From positions 108,713-172,712 of the forward strand of contig CAYOOP010000005.1 in NCBI GenBank assembly GCA_964405685.1: 64,000 nt of DNA. Direction: 5' to 3'. The notes under the pieces are model-generated. The model worked only from the letters and a program-made list of their open reading frames with translations. It was not told where the DNA came from and did not search any database. The DNA comes from an uncultured Rickettsiales bacterium. Lineage in GTDB: Bacteria > Pseudomonadota > Alphaproteobacteria > Rickettsiales > SXRF01. The position numbers were made by a program, and so were the translations under genes. Positions 12,974 to 63,700 of the stretch are shown one piece after another (within the stretch, counting starts at the first letter, position 1; every line of letters begins with the position of its first letter).

Positions 12974-13867
12974 TTATTTATGTTCCCACATATGCCACAG
13001 CGGGCCGGTGCCTTTGCCTAGTTTAGGCGCGTTTGTGATGGCGCCGGCGACGTAAGTGTGGGCGCGTTCCACCGCATTTTTTAAATCCATTCCGCTACCG
13101 ATAAATGTTGCGAGCGCCGAGGCCATGGTGCAGCCGGTGCCGTGGGTGTTTTTGGCCTTCAAGCGCGGTGCTTCAAAGACGGTGACGGTGGTGCCGTCAA
13201 AGAGGATGTTGAACACGTTCTTTCCCTCCAAATGCCCGCCTTTGACGAGCACGTTCCTGGGGCCAAGCTTGTGAATACGTTTTGCCGCTTCAATCATGTC
13301 TGCTTGCGAGATTATTTGCATTCCTGCCAGAATTTCTGCTTCAGGAATGTTGGGAGTAACTAAGTAAGCAAGAGGCAGGAGTTTGGTTTTAAGCGCAGCT
13401 ACCGCTTCTGTTTGCAGCAGTGCCGCACCACCTTTTGCGACCATGACGGGGTCGACCACCAACGGAATTGTTCCCCCCGCTTGCGGGGGGATACAGGGGG
13501 GAATACCCCCACCCACTGCGCTAACGCCTTTGGCGTAAGCTCCGTTACCCTCCCCCGCGAGCGGGGGAGGTTTACTAAGGGCAGATACCACTGCCTCAAT
13601 TGCCGCACTGGTCGAAAGCATTCCCGTTTTAATGGCATCCGCGCCGATATCGCTTAAGCACAATTTGATTTGCTGGGTGATGAACGTGGGTGGCACGTCG
13701 TGAATATCGAAGACGCCTTGTGTGTTTTGTGCGGTTAAGGCGGTGATCGCCGTCATCGCGTAACCGGCTAGGGCCGTTACGGTTTTGAGGTCGCCTTGAA
13801 TGCCGGCGCCGCCGCCGGAATCGGAACCGGCGATGATGAGAATGCGTGGGATCATACTAGTTGTCAT
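12974..13867 (-). CDS. thiD: Hydroxymethylpyrimidine/phosphomethylpyrimidine kinase with an in-frame repeat-derived insertion
   Basis: 297 aa with IAGSDSGGGAGIQGDLKT, VVDPVMVAKGG and THGTGCT ThiD motifs. An extra ~33 aa (PPPLAGEGNGAYAKGVSAVGGGIPPCIPPQAGG) is encoded by repeat D1. Confidence 0.85.
   Translation of the reverse strand: MTTSMIPRILIIAGSDSGGGAGIQGDLKTVTALAGYAMTAITALTAQNTQGVFDIHDVPPTFITQQIKLCLSDIGADAIKTGMLSTSAAIEAVVSALSKPPPLAGEGNGAYAKGVSAVGGGIPPCIPPQAGGTIPLVVDPVMVAKGGAALLQTEAVAALKTKLLPLAYLVTPNIPEAEILAGMQIISQADMIEAAKRIHKLGPRNVLVKGGHLEGKNVFNILFDGTTVTVFEAPRLKAKNTHGTGCTMASALATFIGSGMDLKNAVERAHTYVAGAITNAPKLGKGTGPLWHMWEHK
13470..13570. repeat. G/C-hairpin palindromic element, family D, copy 1 (inside thiD, in frame)
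   Basis: TTCCCCCCGCTTGCGGGGGGA and CCTCCCCCGCGAGCGGGGGAGG terminal hairpins. Its reverse complement matches 57886-58013 apart from a ~27-bp internal indel. Confidence 0.8.
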
Positions 13868-16087: not shown

Positions 16088-19000
16088 TTAACCCACGGCG
16101 GCGGTTAACTGTCCTATAAACGGCTTAAGCTTCGGTACAATCTTCGTTTTATCCTCAAAATCCTCCATATAAACCAGCGATTGGTCGGGCTTCAACTTCA
16201 GGCGGGTGGGGTGTTTCCCGATGAAGGTAATGAGTTTTTCCACTTCGCGTACCGCGCGCTCTTTGAAGCTAATCACCGCGCCTTTCGGGCCGACATCGAG
16301 CCGTGCAATGGCGGCTTTGAAGCAGAGTTGTTTGAGGAGGACGGTGGAAAGCAGGTTTTCGACTTCTTCGGGAAGCGGGCCAAAACGGTCGATGAATTCG
16401 GCGTGAAGTGCTTCCACCTCCTCTTCCGTTTTCATGCTGGCGGCGCGTTTGTAGAGGCCCATCCGTAATTCTAAATCCGCCACGTAGGTTTCGGGGATCA
16501 AGACCGGAATGCCAAGGTTGATTTGGGGAGACCACTCCTGCACACGCACTTCTGCTTCGCCGCTGTGCTTGAGTGCGGCAATCGCCTCTTCCAACATATG
16601 TTGATAAAGCTCGACACCGACTTCGCGAATATGGCCGGATTGTTCTTCGCCGACGAGATTTCCAAATCCGCGGATGTCCATGTCGTGGCTGGCAAGCGTG
16701 AATCCGGCGCCTAGGCGGTCAAGCGTTTGCATGACTTCGAGACGGCGCACCGCTTGGTGGGTGATGGTTTGCGGGGGGATAATAAAATACGCATACGCCC
16801 GCTGCTTGCCGCGACCGACACGGCCGCGCATTTGGTAGAGCTGGCCGAGGCCAAAACGATCGGCGCGGTTGATAATAATCGTGTTGGCGGTTTGTACATC
16901 AAGGCCAGATTCGATGATGGAGGTGGAAATCAGCACGTCGACCTCGCCGTCGTAAAACTTCGTCATGATGGATTCGAGTTCGCTTGGGCTCATCTGTCCG
17001 TGCGCGAGCGCGAAGGAAAGTTCGGGCGTAAGCTCGCGCATTTGCTTGTACAAATCATCCATATCGGCGATGCGCGGGGTGACGATGAAGCTGCGGCCGC
17101 CGCGGTGTTTTTCGCGCATCAACGCTTCGCGGATGATGACGGGGTCAAACGGCATGACGAAGCTGCGGATGGCGAGGCGATCAATGGGTGGTGTCGTAAT
17201 CAAACTCAAATCGCGCACGCCGGAGAGGGCGAGTTGCAGCGTGCGCGGAATGGGCGTTGCCGTAAGTGTCAGCACGTGCACGTCGGTTTTCAATTCCTTC
17301 AAACGCTCTTTTTGTTTCACGCCGAAATGCTGTTCTTCATCGACTATCACGAGGCCGAGGTTTTTGAACTCAATGCCTTTGGCAAGCAGTGCATGTGTGC
17401 CGATGACGATGTCGATGGTGCCATCAGCAATGCCTTCTTTCGTGGCTTTTTGAGTGTTAGCATCTACTAGCCGTGAAAGCTGGCTGACGCGAATGGGGAA
17501 ATCGGCGAAGCGATTTTTAAACAGAGTATAATGCTGGCGTGCGAGGAGACTCGTGGGGACGATAATCGCCACTTGGCGATTAGTTGTCAGTTGACAGTTG
17601 TCAGTTGACAGGAACGCTTCACTGTCAACTGGTAACTGGTGACTGGTAACTACCGCGAAAGCGGCGCGCAGTGCCACTTCGGTTTTGCCGAAGCCGACGT
17701 CGCCGCAGACCAGACGGTCCATAGGTTTGCCGCTGTTTAAGTCGGCAAGCACATCGTCAATGGCACGTGCCTGATCTTCCGTTTCGGCAAAGCCGAAGCC
17801 ACGTGAAAATTCTTCAAGCGTGCCGCTTTCGGCGTGGATGCGTGCACCTGCTTTGAGCGCGCGCTGCGCGGCGGTTTTGATGAGTGCTTCAGCTGCAAGC
17901 TGGATGCGCTCTTTCATACGCGATTTACGCATTTGCCACTGCGCGGCACCGAGTTTATCGAGCGCTACACCTTCGGTTTCCGAGCCGAAGTGCGACAGCA
18001 CATCCATGTTCTCTACGGGTACAAAAAGCTTATCGTCATTATCGTAAATGATTTTCAGGCAATCATGTGCTGCGCCGAGCACGTTCAGTGTTTCCAGTGT
18101 TTCAAACCGGCCGATGCCGTGTTCGCGATGTACCACCAATTCGCCGTATGCGAACTGCGCGGCTTCTTGCAAAAAGACATCGGTTTTCTTTTTGCTTTTG
18201 CGATCTGCAATCCGCACGCCGAGCAACTCGGTTTCGGTCAAGATGGTAAAATCAGGTGTAGCAAAACCTTTCGCCAGCGGTAGATGCGCAACGCCAACGC
18301 CGTGTTCAGGAATGCTTTCAAGATTGTGGAGATGATGCAGATTAATCGCGTCAATCCCCTCAATACGCAAGCGCTCACGCAGGCGATCCGCCGAGCCGCG
18401 CGTGGCGGCGGCGAGGATGGTAGGGGTCGCTGAAAGCCTCTGTTTCAGGGCGGCGTAGGGGTTGGAATCAGTGATGGCGAGCACGGCTTGTGTGCGTAGG
18501 GATGTTTTGCCTTCGAAGGGGGTAAGCGTCACGCTTTCGTGTGCAGCGAGTTCGCTTTCGCTTAGGTAAAATGCTGCAGGTGGTAGCGGATGATAAGGGC
18601 TGGCGTGGGGAAGCTTGTCGGTGCGCAAACGTGCATCGTAATAATCCTGAATCAAGGCTTCGCGTTCGGCGAGGATATCAGCGGTGGTGGGCGCCCACAC
18701 GAGTGTTGCGCCGGGTGCGTAGTCTGGCAAGGTGGCGGTGGTTTCGTAGAAGAGAGGGAGAAAAAATTCGAGGCCGGGGATGCGCGCGCCGCTCGAGATT
18801 GCTTCATACATCGCACTCCCTTGTTGCTGCGCGCCGAAGTGTTCGCGGTAGCGTGTGCGAAAGCATTCGATGCTGTCTTGCGTCAGCCAGATTTCGCTCG
18901 CGGCTTCTAAAAATAAACTATCCGCATCGGCAAGGCTACGCTGGGTGAAGGGGTCAAACCGGCGAATGGTTTCGATGGTGTTGCCGAAGAGATCGAGGCG

Positions 19001-19507
19001 AAATCCCTGCTCTTCGCCGCTCGGGATAATATCGATCATGCTGCCGCGCAGCGCGTATTCTCCGGGCTCCATCGCTTTACCGGAGCGGCGATAGCCAGCG
19101 TTTTCCAGAAATTGTACGAAGGCTTCGTGGTTGATAGTTTCATTTTTTTTGAGGTTAAAACGCGTGGTGCCGGCCACGTCTTTCGGCATCACACGCTGGG
19201 TGATGGCGGCGACAGTGGTGAGGATGATCGGCGCGTCAACGCTTTTAGCAAGTGCGTGTAGCGTGTGAATGCGCTGGCTCACAATCGTGGGATTAGGCGA
19301 GGCGCGGTCATACGGTAGCGTATCCCACGCAGGAAAATGTAGGACGCTTCGGCCTTTAATAAAAAAGGGCAGGGCGGCGGATGCTTGCGACAACTCGCGA
19401 TCGTTTGTGCAGATGTAGATGAGCGCTTTTTTGGGTGATGCTTCCGCGACCGTAGCAAGAGCATAAACGCCTGCGCCTTCTGCGACTCCGCCTACGAGCC
19501 TGTTCAT
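16088..19507 (-). CDS. mfd: Transcription-repair coupling factor with an in-frame palindromic insertion
   Basis: 1139 aa with GDVGFGKTEVALRAAF (Walker A), DEEQHFGV, LTLTATPIPRTL and QLYQMRGRVGRG motifs. An extra 24 aa lies between Walker A and VAIIVPT. Confidence 0.9.
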   Translation of the reverse strand: MNRLVGGVAEGAGVYALATVAEASPKKALIYICTNDRELSQASAALPFFIKGRSVLHFPAWDTLPYDRASPNPTIVSQRIHTLHALAKSVDAPIILTTVAAITQRVMPKDVAGTTRFNLKKNETINHEAFVQFLENAGYRRSGKAMEPGEYALRGSMIDIIPSGEEQGFRLDLFGNTIETIRRFDPFTQRSLADADSLFLEAASEIWLTQDSIECFRTRYREHFGAQQQGSAMYEAISSGARIPGLEFFLPLFYETTATLPDYAPGATLVWAPTTADILAEREALIQDYYDARLRTDKLPHASPYHPLPPAAFYLSESELAAHESVTLTPFEGKTSLRTQAVLAITDSNPYAALKQRLSATPTILAAATRGSADRLRERLRIEGIDAINLHHLHNLESIPEHGVGVAHLPLAKGFATPDFTILTETELLGVRIADRKSKKKTDVFLQEAAQFAYGELVVHREHGIGRFETLETLNVLGAAHDCLKIIYDNDDKLFVPVENMDVLSHFGSETEGVALDKLGAAQWQMRKSRMKERIQLAAEALIKTAAQRALKAGARIHAESGTLEEFSRGFGFAETEDQARAIDDVLADLNSGKPMDRLVCGDVGFGKTEVALRAAFAVVTSHQLPVDSEAFLSTDNCQLTTNRQVAIIVPTSLLARQHYTLFKNRFADFPIRVSQLSRLVDANTQKATKEGIADGTIDIVIGTHALLAKGIEFKNLGLVIVDEEQHFGVKQKERLKELKTDVHVLTLTATPIPRTLQLALSGVRDLSLITTPPIDRLAIRSFVMPFDPVIIREALMREKHRGGRSFIVTPRIADMDDLYKQMRELTPELSFALAHGQMSPSELESIMTKFYDGEVDVLISTSIIESGLDVQTANTIIINRADRFGLGQLYQMRGRVGRGKQRAYAYFIIPPQTITHQAVRRLEVMQTLDRLGAGFTLASHDMDIRGFGNLVGEEQSGHIREVGVELYQHMLEEAIAALKHSGEAEVRVQEWSPQINLGIPVLIPETYVADLELRMGLYKRAASMKTEEEVEALHAEFIDRFGPLPEEVENLLSTVLLKQLCFKAAIARLDVGPKGAVISFKERAVREVEKLITFIGKHPTRLKLKPDQSLVYMEDFEDKTKIVPKLKPFIGQLTAAVG
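17581..17652. repeat. 72-bp heptamer-built palindrome inside mfd (in frame)
   Basis: Arms TAGTTGTCAGTTGACAGTTGTCAGTTGACAG and CTGTCAACTGGTAACTGGTGACTGGTAACTA flank the loop GAACGCTTCA. Each arm is a run of 7-bp units. Confidence 0.8.
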
Positions 19508-38865: not shown

Positions 38866-39383
38866 AGCTCTTAAACAGGGCCGAAGCTTTTAGCAAAAAA
38901 CAGCGCGAGCGGGCGCGGGAGCGCCGCAAACGGCCGATGTCGCCGTTTGGTGTAGGCTATGGCTCGTTTCATGAACGCATGATTGCGGCGATGGTCGATT
39001 TGCTGCTGGTTAGTTTCGTGACGACGCCGCTGATGCAGCCTCCCATCAACGCGGAGGTCTGGGCGATGAATTCCTTGGTGCAAGCGGTGGTGATTGGAAC
39101 GTATTGCCTCACCTGGTGGTATTTCTACGCGGCGACGCCGGGGAAGATGATTTTCCGTCTGCACATCGTCGATATGAAAACCGGATTGCCGATCAAGCGC
39201 CCGCAGGCAATGAAGCGTATCGTGGCCTACGTGCTATCCACGGTTTCTATCATCGGGATTTTCTGGATGCTATGGAACAAAGACCGTCGTTGTCTGCATG
39301 ATCTTATCGCAGAAACGGCGGTGGTGAAACGGCCAAAAACGTCATTGCGAGGAGGTGAAACCGACGCGGCAATCCAGCCCTGA
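38850..39383 (+). CDS. RDD-family membrane protein with a MITE-encoded C-terminal tail
   Basis: TM-rich protein with a WNKDRRCLHDLIAETAV (RDD-type) motif. The last 14 aa (SLRGGETDAAIQP) are encoded by repeat B2. Confidence 0.55.
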   Translation: MQKLLELLNRAEAFSKKQRERARERRKRPMSPFGVGYGSFHERMIAAMVDLLLVSFVTTPLMQPPINAEVWAMNSLVQAVVIGTYCLTWWYFYAATPGKMIFRLHIVDMKTGLPIKRPQAMKRIVAYVLSTVSIIGIFWMLWNKDRRCLHDLIAETAVVKRPKTSLRGGETDAAIQP

Positions 39384-39433
39384 GGCTAGGAGAGATTCTG
39401 GATTGCTTCGTCGCTACGCTTCTCGCAATGACG
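39340..39433. repeat. MITE-like palindromic element, family B, copy 2
   Basis: CGTCATTGCGAGGAGG ... CTCGCAATGACG. Homologous to 6761-6848. Ends 1 nt before the tatA stop codon. Confidence 0.75.
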
Positions 39434-49496: not shown

Positions 49497-49935
49497 CCCT
49501 CTCCCGCGTGCGGGAGAGGGTTAGGGAGAGGGTGGATAGACAAGGAGAAACCATTGCGGGAAAACGCCAAACTTAAGCAAGCCAAGCAATTGCGGAAGCA
49601 GATGACGGAAGCTGAGAACTTGTTGTGGTATTATTTGCGCGCCGAAAGATTTTTGGGTTTCAAGTTTCGTCGCCAGGTGCCCATAGAAGGTTATGTTGCG
49701 GATTTTGCCTGTGTTCACCCTCCGGTCATTATCGAGGTTGATGGCGGTGGGCATACCACACAACAAGAAAAAGATAAAATACGCGATGAAGTCTTGCGAA
49801 AACGTGGCTATAAGGTATTACGTTTTTGGAATAATGAGGTATTCGAGAATATTGAAGGCGTGTCGATGACGATTAAAAATGCACTTGAGACTTCCCCTCT
49901 CCCCCACCCCTCTCCCGCACGCGGGCGAGGGGAGA
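49497..49935 (+). mobile_element. DUF559 gene bracketed by ~39-bp inverted repeats (family E), inserted between nuoI and nuoJ
   Basis: Left end CCCTCTCCCGCGTGCGGGAGAGGGTTAGGGAGAGGGTGG (49497-49535). Right end CCCCTCTCCCCCACCCCTCTCCCGCACGCGGGCGAGGGGAG (49893-49935) is approximately its reverse complement. Confidence 0.65.
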
Positions 49936-49952
49936 AGGTCTGCGTGTTATGA
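49554..49952 (+). CDS. DUF559 (Vsr-like endonuclease fold) domain protein
   Basis: 132 aa with a TTG start after AAGGAG. MTEAENLLWYYLR...FRRQVPIEGYVADFAC...IIEVDGGGH...VLRFWNNEV is the DUF559 pattern. The tail SPLPHPSPARGRGE is repeat-encoded, and the stop overlaps the nuoJ ATG. Confidence 0.75.
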   Translation: MRENAKLKQAKQLRKQMTEAENLLWYYLRAERFLGFKFRRQVPIEGYVADFACVHPPVIIEVDGGGHTTQQEKDKIRDEVLRKRGYKVLRFWNNEVFENIEGVSMTIKNALETSPLPHPSPARGRGEKVCVL

Positions 49953-52844: not shown

Positions 52845-52951
52845 GTCATCCCGTCGAATGACGGGATCCAGCGCTTCGCTCACGCGAAGCAAAAAGAGTC
52901 CTATTGCGCGGCAGACGCCGCTTACTGGATTCCGTCATTCGACGGGATGAC
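52845..52951. repeat. MITE-like palindromic element, family A, copy 3 (between nuoL and nuoM)
   Basis: GTCATCCCGTCGAATGACGGGATCC ... GGATTCCGTCATTCGACGGGATGAC. Occupies most of the 138-bp nuoL-nuoM spacer. Confidence 0.75.
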
Positions 52952-56978: not shown

Positions 56979-57122
56979 ATGAGAAAACTATGGATTTTAT
57001 TGGCGCTACCCTTGCTGCTTGCGGCATGTGACAAAAAAATTGAAGACTTAAAAAGCCCATGCGTTGGTGCGGAAGGTAGTCCGTGTGACAAGCGCGCGCC
57101 AGCCGGTAACCCGCAAAGCTAG
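56979..57122 (+). CDS. Tiny lipoprotein (47 aa)
   Basis: Hand-translated MRKLWILLALPLLLAACDKKIEDLKSPCVGAEGSPCDKRAPAGNPQS. Lipobox LLAAC and AGGAGGG RBS. Below the track cutoff. Confidence 0.45.
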   Translation: MRKLWILLALPLLLAACDKKIEDLKSPCVGAEGSPCDKRAPAGNPQS

Positions 57123-59965
57123 TGGCGCTTCACTCCATTCCTCCGCATTTGCCGTTTTTGGAAACCCTAGCGGATGAAATCTTGGCGCCGCGTGAAGCAC
57201 TTGCTGACGCATTGATTTTACTGCCTTCACGCCGCAATTGCCGTGCGTTGACGCAAGTGCTGGTAGAACGTTCCACTGAGCAGGCGCTGCTGTTGCCGCG
57301 CATTGCTCCGCTTGGGGAAGTGGATGAGGATGCGCTGACATTGGAGCTTGCACTCGGCGGCGACATGATCGAATTCCTGCCCGCCATTTCCCGCATGGAG
57401 CGTATTGCGCGGTTGGCTGCTATGTTTGGGGATGCGCTGCCGCAGCACCATTCCATCATGCTTGCGCGATCGCTCGGTGAATTGATGGATGAATTTGAGC
57501 GCGCGCAGGTGCCGCTTTCGGCGCTTGAAACCTTGGTGCCGGAGCTTTACGCGCAGCATTGGCAAAAGGTGATCGACGTGCTGAAAATCGCGATTCGCCA
57601 GTGGCCGCGAGAATTGGAAAAATTAGAAAAACAAAATCCCATTGCGCGGCGTAATCAATTGGTCGCGGCGCTCATCAAGCATTGGAGGGAACATCCACCT
57701 GCGTACCCTATTATTGCTGCGGGTTCTACGGCCAGTACCAGGGCAACGGCGGATTTACTGGCGGCCATCGCAGAGCTGCCAAATGGCAAGGTGGTGCTGC
57801 CGGGGCTTGCAAATGTTTCGGAGGATTATTGGAATGCGGTGGATTTGGCGCATCCGTATTATTTTTTGAAAAGATTCCTAGAGAACCTCCCCCGCTTGCG
57901 GGGGAGGGCAACGAAGCTTACGCCTTTAGGCGTTAGCGTAGTGGGTGGGGGAACATTGTCTACCCCCCTTGAAAAAGGGTTCCCCCCTGAATCCCCCCGC
58001 AAGCGGGGGGAACTATTTTTGTCCGCCTTTGCGCCGCCGGAAATGATTCCACAGTGGCAGCATGAGGAGATTGATCTGGCGTCGGCGACGGAGGGGTTGA
58101 CGCTACTTGAAGTAGAAAACGAATTCGAGGAAGCACGCACTGTGGCGCTTGCCGCGCGGGAAGCACTGGAAGACCCTAATGCGAAAGTGATGATTGTTAC
58201 CGAGTCGCGTGACCACGCAGCGCTGATTTCTTCTGCCTTAAAACGCCACGGCATCGAGGCGGATGCGAGCCACGGGCTTAATTTGCTGCAAACTGAAGTA
58301 GTGACGTTTTTGCGATTAGTATTGGCTTGCGCGGAAGAGACAAGTGCAGTCAATCTCCTTGCACTTCTAAAACATCCACTGGCCCGCGCGGGGCTTACGC
58401 GTGCAGAATGCTTGCAAGCAGCGCGGGAAATGGATGTGCAGCTTCGTGGCTATGCACTTTTAGATGTGTTTCATGCGCTGGAGCACGAGGAATTAAGCGA
58501 TGCCGCGCGTGCGGTGGTGGCGACACTAAAAGTGGCTATAACGCCACTTGCACGCGCACTCAAGCATCCACACATCGCAGTTACGGAATTGATACGGTTG
58601 CATATCAGCGTAGCCGAACAATTAGCGGAGGATTTGTGGAAAGGGGAGCAGGGGCAGGCGGTCGCCGAGGTATTGGCAGAACTTGCAACATCACTCGCGC
58701 CGATGGGTGCGGTGCAGGGGGCGCTATATAGTAAGATATTCGAGGAATTGCTGGCGCAGGAATATTATCAGGCGCCTTATGGCACGCACCCGCGGCTTAG
58801 CATTTTGTCATCCCAAGAAGCGCGTTTGCTCTCGGCAGATCTGGTGATTGTGGCGGGTATGGTGGAAGGGCAAATGCCCCCTGCGGCGATTCCCAACCCC
58901 TGGATGGGGCGGCACATGATGGAGGCGCTTGGGCTGCATCTGCCGGAGACGGCAGCGAGCCGCACCGCGCACGATATGTTGATGTTGAGCCACGCCAAGC
59001 GCCTGGTGCTTTCGCGGCCGCGGCATGTGGGCGGTAACCCTGCGGAACCCTCGCGCTATATCACCCGGCTCACACTGTATTTGAAAAGTAAGGATGAGGG
59101 GTTTTATGCCAGCCTTCAGAATACGCGCATTCCGGCGTTGCTCAAGCAACTGGACGCAGCGGCGCTGAATAGTGTCGCTCAGCCCGCGCCTACGCCGCCC
59201 ACTGCCGTGCGGCCACGCAGATTCACGGTGTCGGAAATTGAGACCCTGCTGCGCGACCCTTACGCCATTTATGCCAAACATATTTTGAAATTAAAACCGC
59301 TGGAGGTTTTGCAACGCGCGCCGGATGCGGCGCTTTTTGGCAAGGTGATGCATAAGGTATTGGAGCGTTTTTCAACCATGGTGCCGGATACGGAACAGTT
59401 CCGCGCTGTGGGTGTGGAGGTAATGCGTACTATGCTGCATCAAACCGCGACCATCGCTTTGTGGCAGCCACGAATGGATGCGTTGATGGAGGAGTTGGTT
59501 GCACTGGAACGTGCGCGGCGTGTGGATATTACATCGCTCAAAGCCGAAACATCACTCGCAAAAACATTTGCGATTGGCGATCTACAGATTGAACTGCGTA
59601 CGCGCATTGATCGGCTGGAAGAACATCGTGATGGCGGCCAAGTACTTACGGATTATAAAACAGGTGCAGTGCTTGAGGCGAGCAGGGTGAAATCCGGAAA
59701 AGCGCCGCAATTGCCGCTGATGGCGATGATTGTAGAAGGTGTTTCAGGCAAGCCGGTGACAGAGCTTGAATATTGGAATGTCAGTGGCCGCGCGGGGCTT
59801 GAACCTAGCACGACTCCATATACCCCCGAGCTGCGCGCTAAAGCGGAAGCAGGTTTCAAGCAGCTCATGGAAGTGTTTTTGCAGGTAGATACGCCGTATA
59901 TCGCCACGCGTGACGATGAGTGGAATGACTATGCGCATTTGGAGCGAACTGCAGAGTGGGTTTGA
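57122..59965 (+). CDS. addB: Double-strand break repair protein AddB (alphaproteobacterial type) with an in-frame repeat insertion
   Basis: 947 aa with an AddB-like N-terminus (LPFLETLADEIL) and a C-terminal PD-(D/E)xK-like region (LTDYKTG). Residues PRLRGRATKLTPLGVSVVGGGTLSTPLEKGFPPESPRKRGE are encoded by repeat D2. Confidence 0.8.
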   Translation: MALHSIPPHLPFLETLADEILAPREALADALILLPSRRNCRALTQVLVERSTEQALLLPRIAPLGEVDEDALTLELALGGDMIEFLPAISRMERIARLAAMFGDALPQHHSIMLARSLGELMDEFERAQVPLSALETLVPELYAQHWQKVIDVLKIAIRQWPRELEKLEKQNPIARRNQLVAALIKHWREHPPAYPIIAAGSTASTRATADLLAAIAELPNGKVVLPGLANVSEDYWNAVDLAHPYYFLKRFLENLPRLRGRATKLTPLGVSVVGGGTLSTPLEKGFPPESPRKRGELFLSAFAPPEMIPQWQHEEIDLASATEGLTLLEVENEFEEARTVALAAREALEDPNAKVMIVTESRDHAALISSALKRHGIEADASHGLNLLQTEVVTFLRLVLACAEETSAVNLLALLKHPLARAGLTRAECLQAAREMDVQLRGYALLDVFHALEHEELSDAARAVVATLKVAITPLARALKHPHIAVTELIRLHISVAEQLAEDLWKGEQGQAVAEVLAELATSLAPMGAVQGALYSKIFEELLAQEYYQAPYGTHPRLSILSSQEARLLSADLVIVAGMVEGQMPPAAIPNPWMGRHMMEALGLHLPETAASRTAHDMLMLSHAKRLVLSRPRHVGGNPAEPSRYITRLTLYLKSKDEGFYASLQNTRIPALLKQLDAAALNSVAQPAPTPPTAVRPRRFTVSEIETLLRDPYAIYAKHILKLKPLEVLQRAPDAALFGKVMHKVLERFSTMVPDTEQFRAVGVEVMRTMLHQTATIALWQPRMDALMEELVALERARRVDITSLKAETSLAKTFAIGDLQIELRTRIDRLEEHRDGGQVLTDYKTGAVLEASRVKSGKAPQLPLMAMIVEGVSGKPVTELEYWNVSGRAGLEPSTTPYTPELRAKAEAGFKQLMEVFLQVDTPYIATRDDEWNDYAHLERTAEWV
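57886..58013. repeat. G/C-hairpin palindromic element, family D, copy 2 (inside addB, in frame)
   Basis: Terminal hairpins CCTCCCCCGCTTGCGGGGGAGG and TCCCCCCGCAAGCGGGGGGA. Inverted orientation relative to 13470-13570. Confidence 0.8.
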
Positions 59966-60729: not shown

Positions 60730-63700
60730 ATGGATAAAAAACAAGAGCTTATAGCTACATCTCCGGACGTAAATGTCTGGGTTTCGGCCAATGCGGGGGC
60801 GGGAAAGACCCGTATTTTGACCCATCGCGTCCTGCGCCTGCTTGCCGAAGGCGCGCCGCCTTCGTCCATTTTGTGCCTCACCTATACCAATGCCGGGGCG
60901 GCGGAAATGCGTGCACGCATCATCAAAGAAGTGGGTCGCTGGGCGACGATTAAAAGCGATGCGTGCGCGGTATCGCTGGAGACATTGCTGGGCCGTGCGC
61001 CGGATTCAGATACGATCGCACGCGCGCAATCGCTCTTCGCGCAGATTGTCGACCGGGATGATGCTCTGCGGATTGAAACAATCCACGCCTTTTGCCAATC
61101 GCTATTGCGCAGGTTCCCGCTTGAGGCCCATATCTTCCCGCATTTTACACTCATGGATAATCAGGAAGTGCAGCTACTTGCGGGCCACTGCCTGATGCGG
61201 CTTTTAAGCCGTACGCAAGAGAGTGCAACACTCAAAGAAAGCCTTTCGTTTCTGGCGACTAGCCGTGCAGACGGTAGTTTACGAAAAATGGCACTTAGCA
61301 TGGTGGCACAACAGATAAAATGGCGGCGGTTTTTTGCACGTACGGATGTGGAAGATTATATTCGTGATTACGCCAAGCGTCTGCAGGTGGATCTAGGTGC
61401 GGATTTGAAGGCCACCTATTTTAGCTACACGCCTGCGGAGTTGAGCGTGTTGCGCGCTTGTGTACAGAAGATGTTGGCGAGTGGGGGGAAGCTGGATAAA
61501 CAGCGCGGTGCGGTGCTTGCGCGCTGGTTTGAAACGCAGACGCAGGCGGATGCGTATGTGGATGCGTGGCTCACGGAAAAAGAAACGCTGGTTGCGAATA
61601 TGGTGTCCAAAGCCGCTGGATTGAGCGAAGCGGAAGCCCAGGCGATGGATGCCGAACGTTTGCGCGTAGAGGCGTATTTGAAAGCACGGAGCAGCCTAGC
61701 GCTCTTAACCGAAACCAAGCATGTGCTGACGTTTGCGGAAGGCCTACTCGCACTGTACGAACACGAAAAACAAGCGCGCGGATGGATGGATTTTGACGAC
61801 ATGATCGCAGGTGCAGAAAGCTTGCTGGGCGCAAGCGCCATGCGTGACTGGGTGCTGTATAAATTAGACAGCGCGATTCATCATGTGTTGATTGATGAAG
61901 CGCAGGACACGAGCCCTTCGCAGTGGCGCATTGTCGAGGCGCTCACCGAAGAATTTTTTGCCGGCGCGGGACTGGAGCACCCGCGTAGCTTGTTTGTGGT
62001 GGGGGATTTTAAGCAGTCTATTTTCAGTTTCCAGGGTGCGGATGCGGATTTGTTTCTCGCGATGAAAACGCAAATTAAAGAACGTGCGGAAGCTGCGGGC
62101 GTGATGTTTTATGAGCTGGCGCTTGAGGAATCCTATCGTTCCACCGCGCCGGTGTTGCAAGCCGTAGACACTATATTTCAGCCCATGATGCCTGACATTC
62201 GTCACGTGCTGACGCGCAAAAATCAGGCGGGCAAGGTGGTGCTGTGGCCACTGGTGACGGTGGAGAAAGCAGAAAAGCAAGAGGGTTGGGCGTTGCCGCA
62301 GACTGAAGTGCGCGCAACAGCGGAAGAAAAACTGGTAGCGGCACTTGTTGCGGAAATTGCGGGATGGATTGGTGTGCGTGACTTGCCGGCCAAAGGCCGC
62401 AAGGTGCAGCCTGGCGATGTTATGATTTTGCTGAAGAAACGTGGCACGCTGGCGATGCGTCTGGTGAATGCGTTCAAAGCCAGAGGAATCCCGGTTTCCG
62501 GGGCGGACCGCATGGTGCTTGCAGACCATTTGGCGGTGCAGGATATGCTGGCGTTGCTCAAATTCGCGCTACTGCCGCAGGATGATTATACGCTCGCCTG
62601 TGTGCTCAAATCGCCGTTGTGTGGGCTTACAGAAGATGCATTGTTTGAACTGGCGCATAGGCGCATAGGGACATTATTTGAAGCACTTAAAACTTCATCG
62701 CATACACAAGCAATCGAGCTGCTCAGCAGCGTGCTTGCGCTTGCGGATAAACGCCCGCCATCGGCGCTGATGGCTGAAGTGCTGGGGTATGGTATGCGCC
62801 GGAATTTTGCAGCGCGGCTCGGGGCGGATGCGCTTTCGGTGCTCGACACATTGCTGCAAACCGCGCATGAATATGAAGCGTTGCATCCGCCAAGTGTGCA
62901 GGGTTTTGTCCATTTCATGGAGCAGGTGGAGACGGAATTCACGCGCGGGAATGCCAGTGAAAACGTGGTGCGGGTGATGACGGTACATGGTGCAAAAGGC
63001 TTGCAAGCGCCGATTGTGATACTGCCGGATGCGGCCTCGCCCTTATCCGCGCCCGAGCAACTCACCTGGCAAAAAGGCGAACCGCGCTTGCTGCCGCCGG
63101 ATAAAGGCTCGTACGGCATTGCTGATGACGTGAAGGACGCGCGCAGAAACTCTATGCAAAGCGAATATTTGCGCTTGTTCTACGTGGCGCTAACGCGGGC
63201 GGAGGATGAGCTGTATATTCTAGGCTATACGGGCAGAAGTGTACCGGAAACCAGCTGGTACACGCTCGCGCAAAAAGCGCTCACACCGATTTCAGAACCT
63301 CTGGAAACCCCTGTGGGGCGGGGGGTTGCAGTTATTTGTCATCCTGAGCGTAGCGAAGGATCTCTATGCCCGCAAAAGGTCCTTCGCTACGCTCAGGATG
63401 ACAGGGAAATACCAAAATGGGCGACCACGCCGGTTGCGCTCGAGCCTATGTACACTGCGCCGGTACTGCCTTCGAAGCAGGATGCGGAAAGCGAGAACAC
63501 CGCGCCTTCGCCGCTCGCGCGTGACGTTGCGGTTGCACGCGGGCGGATGGTGCATCACCTGTTGCAATATTTGCCGGAGATAGAGCAGGGACGGCGCGCA
63601 GCGGTTGCAAAGCTCTTTTTAGCACGGCGTTATGCGGACGCTGAGGAAGACGTACGCGAACAAGTGGTGCGGGATGTAGTGCGGTTGATGGATCATCCGG

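Follow-up and report, generated by a model that had tools for sequence, protein, structure and literature searches.

The mfd gene of an uncultured alphaproteobacterium contains an in-frame, 72-bp imperfect palindrome, assembled from heptamer repeats and located between the Walker A motif and the VAIIVPT strand of the encoded helicase core. The palindrome is probably a tolerated and translated selfish insert, similar to the Rickettsia palindromic elements (RPEs) and belonging to a heptamer-hairpin type similar to the STRR repeats. The gene, which lies in the 64,000-nt stretch of DNA analysed here (the window), is identified as mfd by a match to NCBIfam TIGR00580 (944 bits) and by a match to E. 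coli Mfd in the PDB (6x26/2eyq, E 1.9e-216). A sequence-only reading had described the palindrome, its position in the gene, and the heptamers of its arms; an inverted-repeat search, a tandem-repeat search (TRF), and translation of the ORF bear out each of these points. The coordinates are collected in Table 1.

Table 1. The palindrome, its parts, and the neighbouring elements of mfd, in window positions.
Feature	Position	Strand	Basis
Imperfect palindrome, 72 nt	17581..17652	.	inverted-repeat search and folding
5′ arm, coding strand: GTTACCA GTCACCA GTTACCA GTTGACA	17622..17652	-	inverted repeat and TRF
Apical loop, GTGAAGCGTT region of the coding strand	17612..17621	-	inverted repeat and fold
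3′ arm, coding strand: GTCAACT GACAACT GTCAACT GACAACT	17581..17611	-	inverted repeat and TRF
mfd CDS, transcription-repair coupling factor, 1139 aa	16088..19507	-	ORF, NCBIfam, PDB match
Walker A / motif I codons, GDVGFGKT, aa 602-609	17681..17704	-	translation
Full linker, RAAF to QVAIIVPT, aa 618-644, 27 aa	17576..17656	-	120-homologue alignment
Strand beta-2 / motif Ia start, QVAIIVPT, aa 645-652	17552..17575	-	translation, AlphaFold strand 645-649

The inverted-repeat search resolves the palindrome into two arms of 31 nt, separated by a 10-nt spacer, and each arm consists of four 7-nt units. In particular, TRF detects period-7 arrays at 17582-17611 (4.3 copies) and at 17627-17651 (3.6 copies), and both arms thus contain tandem 7-nt units in at least three copies. 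The 3′ arm reads (AGTTGWC)4.3 on the + strand and includes a perfect 14-nt tandem duplication, AGTTGTCAGTTGAC twice (2.1 perfect copies in a repeat search); the hairpin units can also be written CAGTTGW / CCAGTNAC. The units are heterogeneous rather than identical, and, because the two arms are only 77% complementary, the palindrome may be an old copy. Folded as RNA, the palindrome has a free energy of -35.9 kcal/mol (z -5.98), a value that none of 200 shuffles equals; folded as DNA, it has a value of -20.5 (z -5.27); and it belongs to one of the five 90-nt windows with the most stable folds in the 64 kb. The GC content is 44% in the insert versus 55% in mfd. A 24-mer from the heptamer array occurs once in the window, where the chance expectation is 0, and the hairpin in mfd is the only heptamer hairpin of the window.

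Translation across the site gives ...GDVGFGKTEVALRAAF-AVVTSHQLPVDSEAFLSTDNCQLTTNR-QVAIIVPT..., with HQLPVDSEAFLSTDNCQLTTNR as the insert peptide. The elements on either side are strongly constrained: GDVGFGKT is invariant across 33 aligned homologues, and QVAIIVPT is conserved in every homologue aligned. The palindrome is free of stop codons in one of six frames only, and that frame is in register with mfd. Because the linker comprises 27 aa here versus 7-12 aa in 98 of 120 homologues (alignment and linker-length count), the palindrome spans almost the entire linker. The 24 extra codons proposed earlier therefore correspond to a real insertion, but the net excess over the orthologues is approximately 15-20 codons; and the palindrome, while 72 nt in length, is not an exact block of codons, being offset by 2 nt from the codon boundaries (the peptide originally quoted is encoded by 17579-17650). 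For the insert, AlphaFold predicts a disordered coil (residues 621-644, with pLDDT <50 at 627-641) flanked by a confident helix (608-620) and a confident strand (645-649), a predicted surface position, away from the catalytic motifs, that agrees with the surface loop envisaged in the sequence-only reading. By RecA-fold topology, this alpha-1/beta-2 loop and the ATP site would lie at opposite ends of the sheet.

Alignment of Mfd orthologues delimits the insertion and reveals that this in-frame, stop-free segment of a conserved gene is absent from most of them. Specifically, approximately 80% of the close orthologues, sister lineages included, lack the insert, and E. coli Mfd has only four residues at the linker (647-650). 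The insert is likewise missing from all of the 80 best metagenome Mfd loci, a set that serves as a control only, since its ranking favours gap-free matches and the scan for that reason returned solely insert-free genes. A long insert at the linker site is present in approximately 21 alphaproteobacterial Mfd proteins, which are scattered and which, in a neighbour-joining tree, are interleaved with insert-free sisters. Some orthologues thus do carry a homologous hairpin, a result that could have pointed to an ancestral linker; but because the carriers are a scattered minority among insert-free sisters, the segment is not an ancestral part of the Mfd linker.

Read as DNA, 11 of 12 same-site inserts, this window counted, are hairpins. 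The majority are built from heptamers, with units that are specific to the lineage, and two are GEGWGEG-type palindromes. Seven of the inserts (those of this window, P0003, P0099, P0062, P0042, P0041, and P0044) align unit by unit, in the same heptamer phase, and have partly conserved flanks (ACAAATGC..., ...AACGCCAT). A 31-pair helix drawn across these seven has 73% of its cells paired, versus 59% in shuffles (0 of 500 shuffles reach 73%) and 27-54% in slid registers; 16 pairs are altered on both sides; and four periodic pairs switch from A-U to U-A in concert, although counts of this kind are inflated where the structures compared are related or derived. Between Mfd relatives that share at least 90% identity (P0004 with P0121, and P0041 with P0122), the inserts are identical within each pair.

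Near-identical hairpins also occur at unrelated positions of the same genomes. One relative (P0041/L209) has copies at Mfd sites 95 and 650 that are 88% identical, a second (L211) has copies at Mfd sites 650 and 1006 and in recG that are 87-94% identical, and a third (L003) has copies at Mfd site 650 and in recG that are 89% identical; between genomes, by comparison, copies at the same Mfd site are just 68-76% alike. Twelve further heptamer hairpins are present in approximately 145 kb around insert-bearing mfd genes, versus none in approximately 749 kb around 80 insert-free mfd genes, and heptamer hairpins thus track insert-bearing genomes. Further hot spots of insertion in Mfd, with signature peptides of palindromic repeats, are located at alignment columns of approximately 95, 352, and 1006. 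Membership in a dispersed family is shown for the relatives rather than for the present genome, because no second copy of this element was found in the 64-kb window, the part of the source genome covered here. When 1.84 billion representatives were searched in full with phmmer, no further protein with the Mfd insert peptide was recovered (one spurious repetitive protein matched). A GGGATTC-type hairpin is present in two relatives (L001 and L208).

The heptamer unit has a wider distribution. In other genomes, the CAGTTGWCAGTTGWCAGTTG array matches at least 120 stretches, those listed being from Cyanobacteria, Planctomycetota, Acidobacteriota, and Bacteroidota, and, among these listed matches, Microcoleus, Nostoc, Calothrix, and Richelia have abundant CAGTTGW arrays; the same unit thus recurs as arrays in other genomes, as STRR-like repeats do. 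Of 146 arrays surveyed, only approximately 9 have an inverted partner, and only two lie within long ORFs. In a planctomycete Ser/Thr kinase, the same unit forms an in-frame hairpin between HRDLKPANIL and DFG.

Other genes of the window are affected as well. In particular, thiD has a 33-aa in-frame insert that is absent from ThiD proteins of the PDB; addB has an in-frame insert whose DNA is approximately 90% identical to that of the thiD insert; and addA has an in-frame insert comprising a palindrome with 27-nt arms. Together with mfd, four housekeeping genes in 64 kb hold in-frame palindromic or dispersed-repeat inserts. These inserts, the absence of the mfd segment from most orthologues, the predicted coil, and the copies in relatives together give good support to the sequence-only suggestion that the protein tolerates a surface loop derived from selfish DNA.

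We propose to regard the palindrome as a small DNA element, either selfish or neutral, consisting of two inverted arrays of approximately four 7-nt units each, in the manner of cyanobacterial STRR repeats folded into a hairpin, that occupies the loop between the post-Walker A helix and strand beta-2 of the first RecA-like domain (D5). The element would survive in mfd because the loop is permissive and because its length is divisible by three and its sole stop-free frame is in register; by virtue of that length and frame, it would be translated as a disordered extra loop of approximately 20 aa. Elements of this kind would form genome-specific dispersed families, whose copies may move, or be homogenised, among the permissive loops of large conserved genes. 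Complementarity of the arms could be kept by slippage of units with one arm templating the other, or by conversion from other copies. No benefit to Mfd would be required, and the insert is presumed to be neutral for the protein.

The unit-by-unit alignment of same-site inserts, their shared flanks, and the compensatory pairing would also fit a hairpin under selection, or a single ancient insertion that was later lost many times. Under the former explanation, which we regard as improbable, the hairpin is functional and selected as an mRNA structure or a DNA cruciform, with the peptide as a by-product; it might act in mRNA processing or stability, in causing ribosomes to pause between the Walker A helix and beta-2, or in transcription or replication pausing. 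The stability of the RNA fold, the preservation of the 31-pair helix in excess of shuffles, and the occupation of the homologous position in several deep lineages speak for such a function, and the suggestion of an RNA- or DNA-level role is compatible with the pairing kept through compensatory change, but it gains no positive support from known signals. However, most close orthologues, sisters included, dispense with the insert; unrelated palindrome families fill the same Mfd site in other lineages; the same hairpins occupy further loops of Mfd as well as RecG; and homogenisation within a genome can mimic covariation without selection. Nor did searches for known signals place one at the palindrome: covariance models of Rfam 15, applied at the gathering score, have 0 matches in the whole window; no terminator coincides with the palindrome, the three terminator-like sites of the scanned mfd region lying outside it and being fewer than in shuffles; no T-run follows it; and the single promoter-like site of the mfd region (CTGACA-17-GATTAT) is within chance expectation. 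Another rival explanation assumes a local, non-mobile origin, in which slippage expands a 7-nt motif in the linker and a template switch creates the inverted array, the structures in relatives deriving from one ancient event through concerted evolution and many precise deletions. It accommodates the common heptamer phase and partly conserved flanks of the seven inserts, the single copy in the 64-kb window, and the lack of any identified transposase, target-site duplication, or terminal signature for the palindrome, and heptamer slippage has been proposed to account for the over-representation of 7-nt repeats (PMC4692102). We nevertheless consider it unlikely: purely local slippage cannot account for near-identical copies at unrelated mfd and recG sites, a single origin demands many independent precise losses to leave carriers scattered among insert-free sisters, and the same site holds unrelated palindrome families in other lineages.

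Two further explanations have very little probability. The palindrome would be a contingency locus if the frame were shifted whenever 7- or 14-nt units were gained or lost, so that Mfd was switched reversibly off and on, a scheme for which one can cite the influence of Mfd on mutagenesis, a unit length that is not a multiple of three, the perfect 14-nt duplication, and the heptanucleotide repeats that reportedly drive phase variation in Haemophilus. Classical switches, however, are long perfect tracts, whereas the units here are heterogeneous and the 14-mer has only 2.1 perfect copies; the inserts do not vary within the two pairs of close relatives; and all recovered homologues are in frame, among the intact proteins to which the search was confined. 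An artefact of sequencing or assembly, e.g., a fold-back chimera, is a scarcely credible source of the palindrome: library or assembly errors can create palindromes, and the contig is of metagenome type, but the insert is in frame and stop-free in exactly one frame, its arms are imperfect, and the independent assemblies of eleven relatives have an insert at the same codon position, ten of these being hairpins. A more ambitious reading, which we put forward as doubtful, is that heptamer-array hairpins constitute a distinct, undescribed class of self-propagating DNA, present in Alphaproteobacteria and probably in other phyla, that spreads or is homogenised by transposase-free template switching and gene conversion between hairpins, is preferentially kept in, or directed to, particular loops of DNA-repair helicase genes (mfd and recG), and has stems under selection. 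If so, the pattern in which shared orthologous sites are filled with genome-specific units, both arms of which flip together, would be the mark of an active mechanism and might point to a regulatory connection with hairpin-processing enzymes.

In-frame palindromic inserts are textbook knowledge for Rickettsia and are regarded as a peculiarity of that genus. A tolerated RPE-like insert in mfd would extend them beyond Rickettsia, to an uncultured alphaproteobacterial lineage in which four housekeeping genes within 64 kb are affected and in whose relatives Mfd and RecG genes also bear heptamer hairpins. A hairpin made of 7-nt repeats would furthermore connect RPEs with the surplus of heptamer repeats in bacteria (STRR and the like), which has long lacked an explanation. 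Occupied in many lineages by genome-specific versions of the hairpin whose arms change in concert, these Mfd and RecG loops provide a natural data set that could help to explain the origin and movement of such repeats and the maintenance of their palindromic form, and that maps the loops of Mfd tolerating 20-45 extra residues. For annotation, the consequence is that in-frame inserts of this kind are real, and that they ought not to be annotated as frameshifts or assembly errors.

Among known systems, the STRR heptanucleotide repeats of cyanobacteria, reportedly described by Mazel in 1990 and Vioque in 1997 and said to include arrays inside the RNase P RNA gene, share with the Mfd element tandem 7-nt units, often with CAGT/ACTG, that are tolerated in a functional gene as an extended hairpin. 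STRRs differ in being mainly intergenic, one-directional, and from another phylum; the Mfd element is an array pair in frame within a protein gene, and, instead of many, chiefly intergenic arrays per genome, the window has a single genic array pair. The small dispersed repeats (SDRs) of Nostoc, reportedly described by Elhai et al. in 2008 as 21-27-nt modules of fixed sequence linked to heptamer tracts and hairpins, are likewise very small and at times lie inside conserved genes, but no fixed 21-27-nt module is visible in the Mfd element. The G-rich heptamers GGGAATC / GGGGAYT of Xanthomonas and Nostoc (PMC4692102) resemble it in the heterogeneity of their units, their variation between relatives, and their inverted stem-loop pairs, but are intergenic and G-quadruplex-prone, whereas the Mfd element is coding and not G-rich. 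REP and REPIN sequences (PMC3116915, PMC3733652) are also short imperfect palindromes that evolve as families within a genome, but are mobilised by RAYT, are extragenic, and have a conserved GTAG or CGTC head; the Mfd element is intragenic. A REP-type GTAG head was considered and dropped, because the GTAG at the 5′ edge of the palindrome falls within Val codons (GCGGTAGTT is read as Ala-Val-Val) and most relatives with an insert at the same site lack the tetranucleotide. Contingency loci, which vary in length among close strains, have a long tract of identical units, unlike the Mfd element.

The closest precedents are the RPEs. Compared by description, RPE families are approximately 100-150 bp in length and have a fixed consensus, whereas the Mfd element is 72 bp in length, has 7-nt units that vary by lineage, is present as one copy in the window, and resides in a host with 52% GC and a gene set unlike that of Rickettsia. 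In-frame insertion of RPEs is established in the work of Ogata et al. 2000, as summarised in PMC10969869, and heptamer simple repeats, inverted pairs among them, are over-represented in bacteria (PMC4692102). The Mfd element shares with RPEs an alphaproteobacterial host, a hairpin repeat that lies in frame in conserved housekeeping genes and is translated at positions compatible with the fold, several copies per genome (in the Mfd relatives), and several affected genes in one 64-kb window.

Inverted arms, a period of 7 nt in both arms (Tandem Repeats Finder, TRF), and translation confirm the sequence-only reading that a 72-bp palindrome built from heptamers lies in frame in mfd. The linker peptide is AVVTSHQLPVDSEAFLSTDNCQLTTNR, flanked by GDVGFGKTEVALRAAF and QVAIIVPT, and the coding-strand units are GTTACCA GTCACCA GTTACCA GTTGACA, a loop, and GTCAACT GACAACT GTCAACT GACAACT. 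The palindrome is offset 2 nt from the codon register, only one frame out of six crosses it without a stop, and its GC content is 44% versus 55% for mfd. As RNA, the predicted fold has a free energy of −35.9 kcal/mol (z −5.98); as DNA, it has −20.5 kcal/mol (z −5.27), and 0 of 200 shuffles were as stable. The region is one of the five most stable 90-nt windows across the 64 kb, in which the heptamer array occurs once.

Alignment with homologues reveals an insertion: the linker comprises 7–12 aa in 98 of 120 homologues, 15–45 aa in 21 of 120, and four residues (647–650) in E. coli Mfd. Of the 24 extra codons originally claimed, the linker insertion is real, but the net excess over orthologues is ~15–20 codons. 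All 80 of the best metagenome Mfd loci lack an insert. Out of 5.8 billion proteins, the closest Mfd shares only 55% identity, which marks the source as an isolated lineage of Alphaproteobacteria. In a neighbour-joining tree of Mfd computed with the linker region left out, insert carriers are dispersed among insert-free sisters and are enriched in a small clade containing the Mfd of the window. Among eleven insert-bearing relatives examined as DNA, ten have hairpin-forming inserts, mostly heptamer-built (one is built of roughly octamers), with units that vary by lineage: CAGATGA, GATGAGC, AGTGCTG, TAACCAA, and CCAGTNAC. Two of the ten hairpins are unrelated GEGWGEG-type palindromes of ~130 nt.

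The insert had been proposed to be a loop, and AlphaFold, with a 33-sequence alignment, predicts a coil at residues 621–644 (pLDDT below 50 for 627–641) between a confident helix (608–620) and a confident strand (645–649). By RecA-fold topology, this loop would lie away from the nucleotide site, at the opposite end of the sheet, in agreement with the tolerance in relatives of up to 45 residues at the linker.

Seven same-site inserts, including that of the window, can be aligned without large gaps, share a common heptamer phase, and have partly conserved flanks. A 31-pair helix is paired in 73% of cells versus 59% in shuffles (0 of 500 as high), for n = 7 sequences with non-independent repeat units and a helix derived from the fold of one of them, the window's. 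Changes on both sides occur in 16 of the pairs, and shifting the register by one to three columns gives 27–54% pairing. Specifically, A-U to U-A flips occur jointly in four pairs at 7-nt spacing, corresponding to CAGATG/CATCTG in the homologue P0003 versus CAGTTG/CAACTG in the window. The compensatory pairing and the four-pair flip suggest that heptamer units and arms evolve in concert.

In the genomes of relatives, the hairpins form dispersed families. The mfd gene for the homologue P0041 contains an AGTGCTG hairpin twice, at alignment sites 95 and 650, the latter being the position of the element's loop (88% identity between copies); locus L211 contains three copies (Mfd sites 650 and 1006, and recG; 87–94% identical), and locus L003 two (mfd and recG; 89% identity). 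Between genomes, copies at one Mfd site are only 68–76% alike. A RecG hot spot after motif VI is occupied in L003, L211, and L208 and empty in L001, and each recG hairpin is of the same family as the Mfd insert of that genome; recG is not among the genes within the 64-kb window. Elsewhere in Mfd, further hot spots near alignment columns 95, 352, and 1006 hold heptamer hairpins or GEG/VIPAKAGI-type palindromes, including well-known palindromic-repeat signatures such as SPSPLxGEG... and VIPAKAGI...RLRGNDK; the Mfd of the window has no insert at these columns. A uniform scan found 12 further heptamer hairpins in ~145 kb around insert-bearing mfd genes and zero in ~749 kb around 80 insert-free mfd genes. 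The presence of an Mfd insert therefore tracks the genome's harbouring of such elements and nothing specific to Mfd.

Two side observations concern these loci. L001 21246-21335 is a palindrome with 45-nt arms of GGGATTC-type heptamers, a type described in Xanthomonas and Nostoc, and overlaps the 5′ end of the called flgH. The order GGDEF - Sdh5 (SdhAF2-like) - mfd is conserved in L001-L004, L207-L209, and L211, often with recG nearby.

Coordinates of the repeat elements and their host genes (P0041 and L209 are protein and DNA of one genome)
Feature	Locus	Position	Strand	Details
mfd ORF	window	16088-19507	minus	1139 aa; TIGR00580 944 bits; E. coli Mfd structures E 1.9e-216
Imperfect palindrome	window	17581-17652		31-nt arms, 77% complementarity, 10-nt loop
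recG in-frame heptamer hairpin	L003	3159-3214		loop CVLL(Y)-[insert]-RLxxLRxTEDGF
recG in-frame heptamer hairpin	L211	158-217		same loop
recG in-frame heptamer hairpin	L208	1671-1748		same loop
Hot-spot insert, alphaproteobacterial Mfd (example)	L209	2504-2600
Hot-spot insert (example)	L209	3338-3455
Hot-spot insert (example)	L211	7026-7091
Hot-spot insert (example)	L001	13009-13069
thiD insert	window	13481-13570 in ORF 12974-13867	minus	in-frame 33 aa, KPPPLAGEGNGAYAKGVSAVGGGIPPCIPPQAGG; G/C-rich hairpins
addB insert	window	57881-57990 in ORF 57122-59965	plus	in-frame, ENLPRLRGRATKLTPLGVSVVGGGTLSTPLEKGFPPESPRKRGE
addA palindrome	window	63337-63403 in ORF 60730 to beyond 64000	plus	27-nt arms, 96% complementary; in-frame reading CHPERSEGSLCPQKVLRYAQDDR
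Strong hairpin, other repeat type	window	52851-52940		GAATGACGG...CCGTCATTC
Strong hairpin, other repeat type	window	39341-39430		CATTGCGAG...CTCGCAATG
Strong hairpin, other repeat type	window	49890-49950		CCCCTCTCCC...GGGGAG
Ser/Thr kinase, in-frame CAGTTGT/ACAACTG hairpin	L022	3700-3790		Gemmataceae chromosome OY969623.1

The 64 kb contain four in-frame repeat inserts, in mfd, thiD, addB, and addA, the last being a putative insertion. The thiD insert is missing from solved ThiD structures and splits the HMMER match into 5–98 and 132–293; its DNA is ~90% identical to that of the addB insert, in opposite genomic orientation. The two are intragenic copies of one dispersed repeat family, both within the 64 kb. 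The other frame of the addA palindrome reads VILSVAKDL...SFATLRMT, a common repeat type. The three strong hairpins of other repeat types are apparently intergenic or at gene ends.

Beyond these genomes, the species genomes of GTDB contain CAGTTGW arrays in at least 120 stretches; among the matches listed, the arrays are mostly from Cyanobacteria, Planctomycetota, Acidobacteriota, and Bacteroidota, and most are intergenic and one-directional. The Gemmataceae kinase hairpin, located between the catalytic loop HRDLKPANIL and DFG and reading ...SVVSCQLSVV...LTTDNWQLTT..., indicates that in-frame heptamer hairpins are not confined to Alphaproteobacteria. Heptamer simple repeats are over-represented in bacteria, also as inverted pairs (PMC4692102).

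A functional role of the hairpin is possible and would account for the compensatory changes in the stem, but the distribution is patchy, unrelated palindromes occupy the same Mfd site, the same hairpins occur in other loops and genes, and the element matches no Rfam family, while terminator and promoter signals do not exceed chance. An origin at the site itself, through slippage and template switching alone, is compatible with the single copy in the window but not with the near-identical copies that relatives have at unrelated sites. Phase variation is unlikely, given that the units are heterogeneous and that two other insert-bearing Mfd proteins share identical inserts with their close relatives. 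An artefact is excluded in practice by the imperfect, in-frame structure and by independent assemblies having hairpins at the same codon position.

The element is probably an insert, selfish or neutral, that is translated and tolerated. The earlier suggestion of a tolerated selfish loop resembling a Rickettsia palindromic element (RPE) is supported by its absence from most homologues, the predicted coil, and the dispersed copies in relatives. Some mechanism fills the same mfd and recG loops with genome-specific heptamer hairpins and keeps their arms matched. In structure and position, the element behaves like an RPE (PMC10969869); multiple copies, as is typical of RPEs, are shown in relatives, and a single copy in the 64 kb. 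In its build, the element corresponds to a cyanobacterial heptanucleotide tandem repeat (STRR) array folded on itself.
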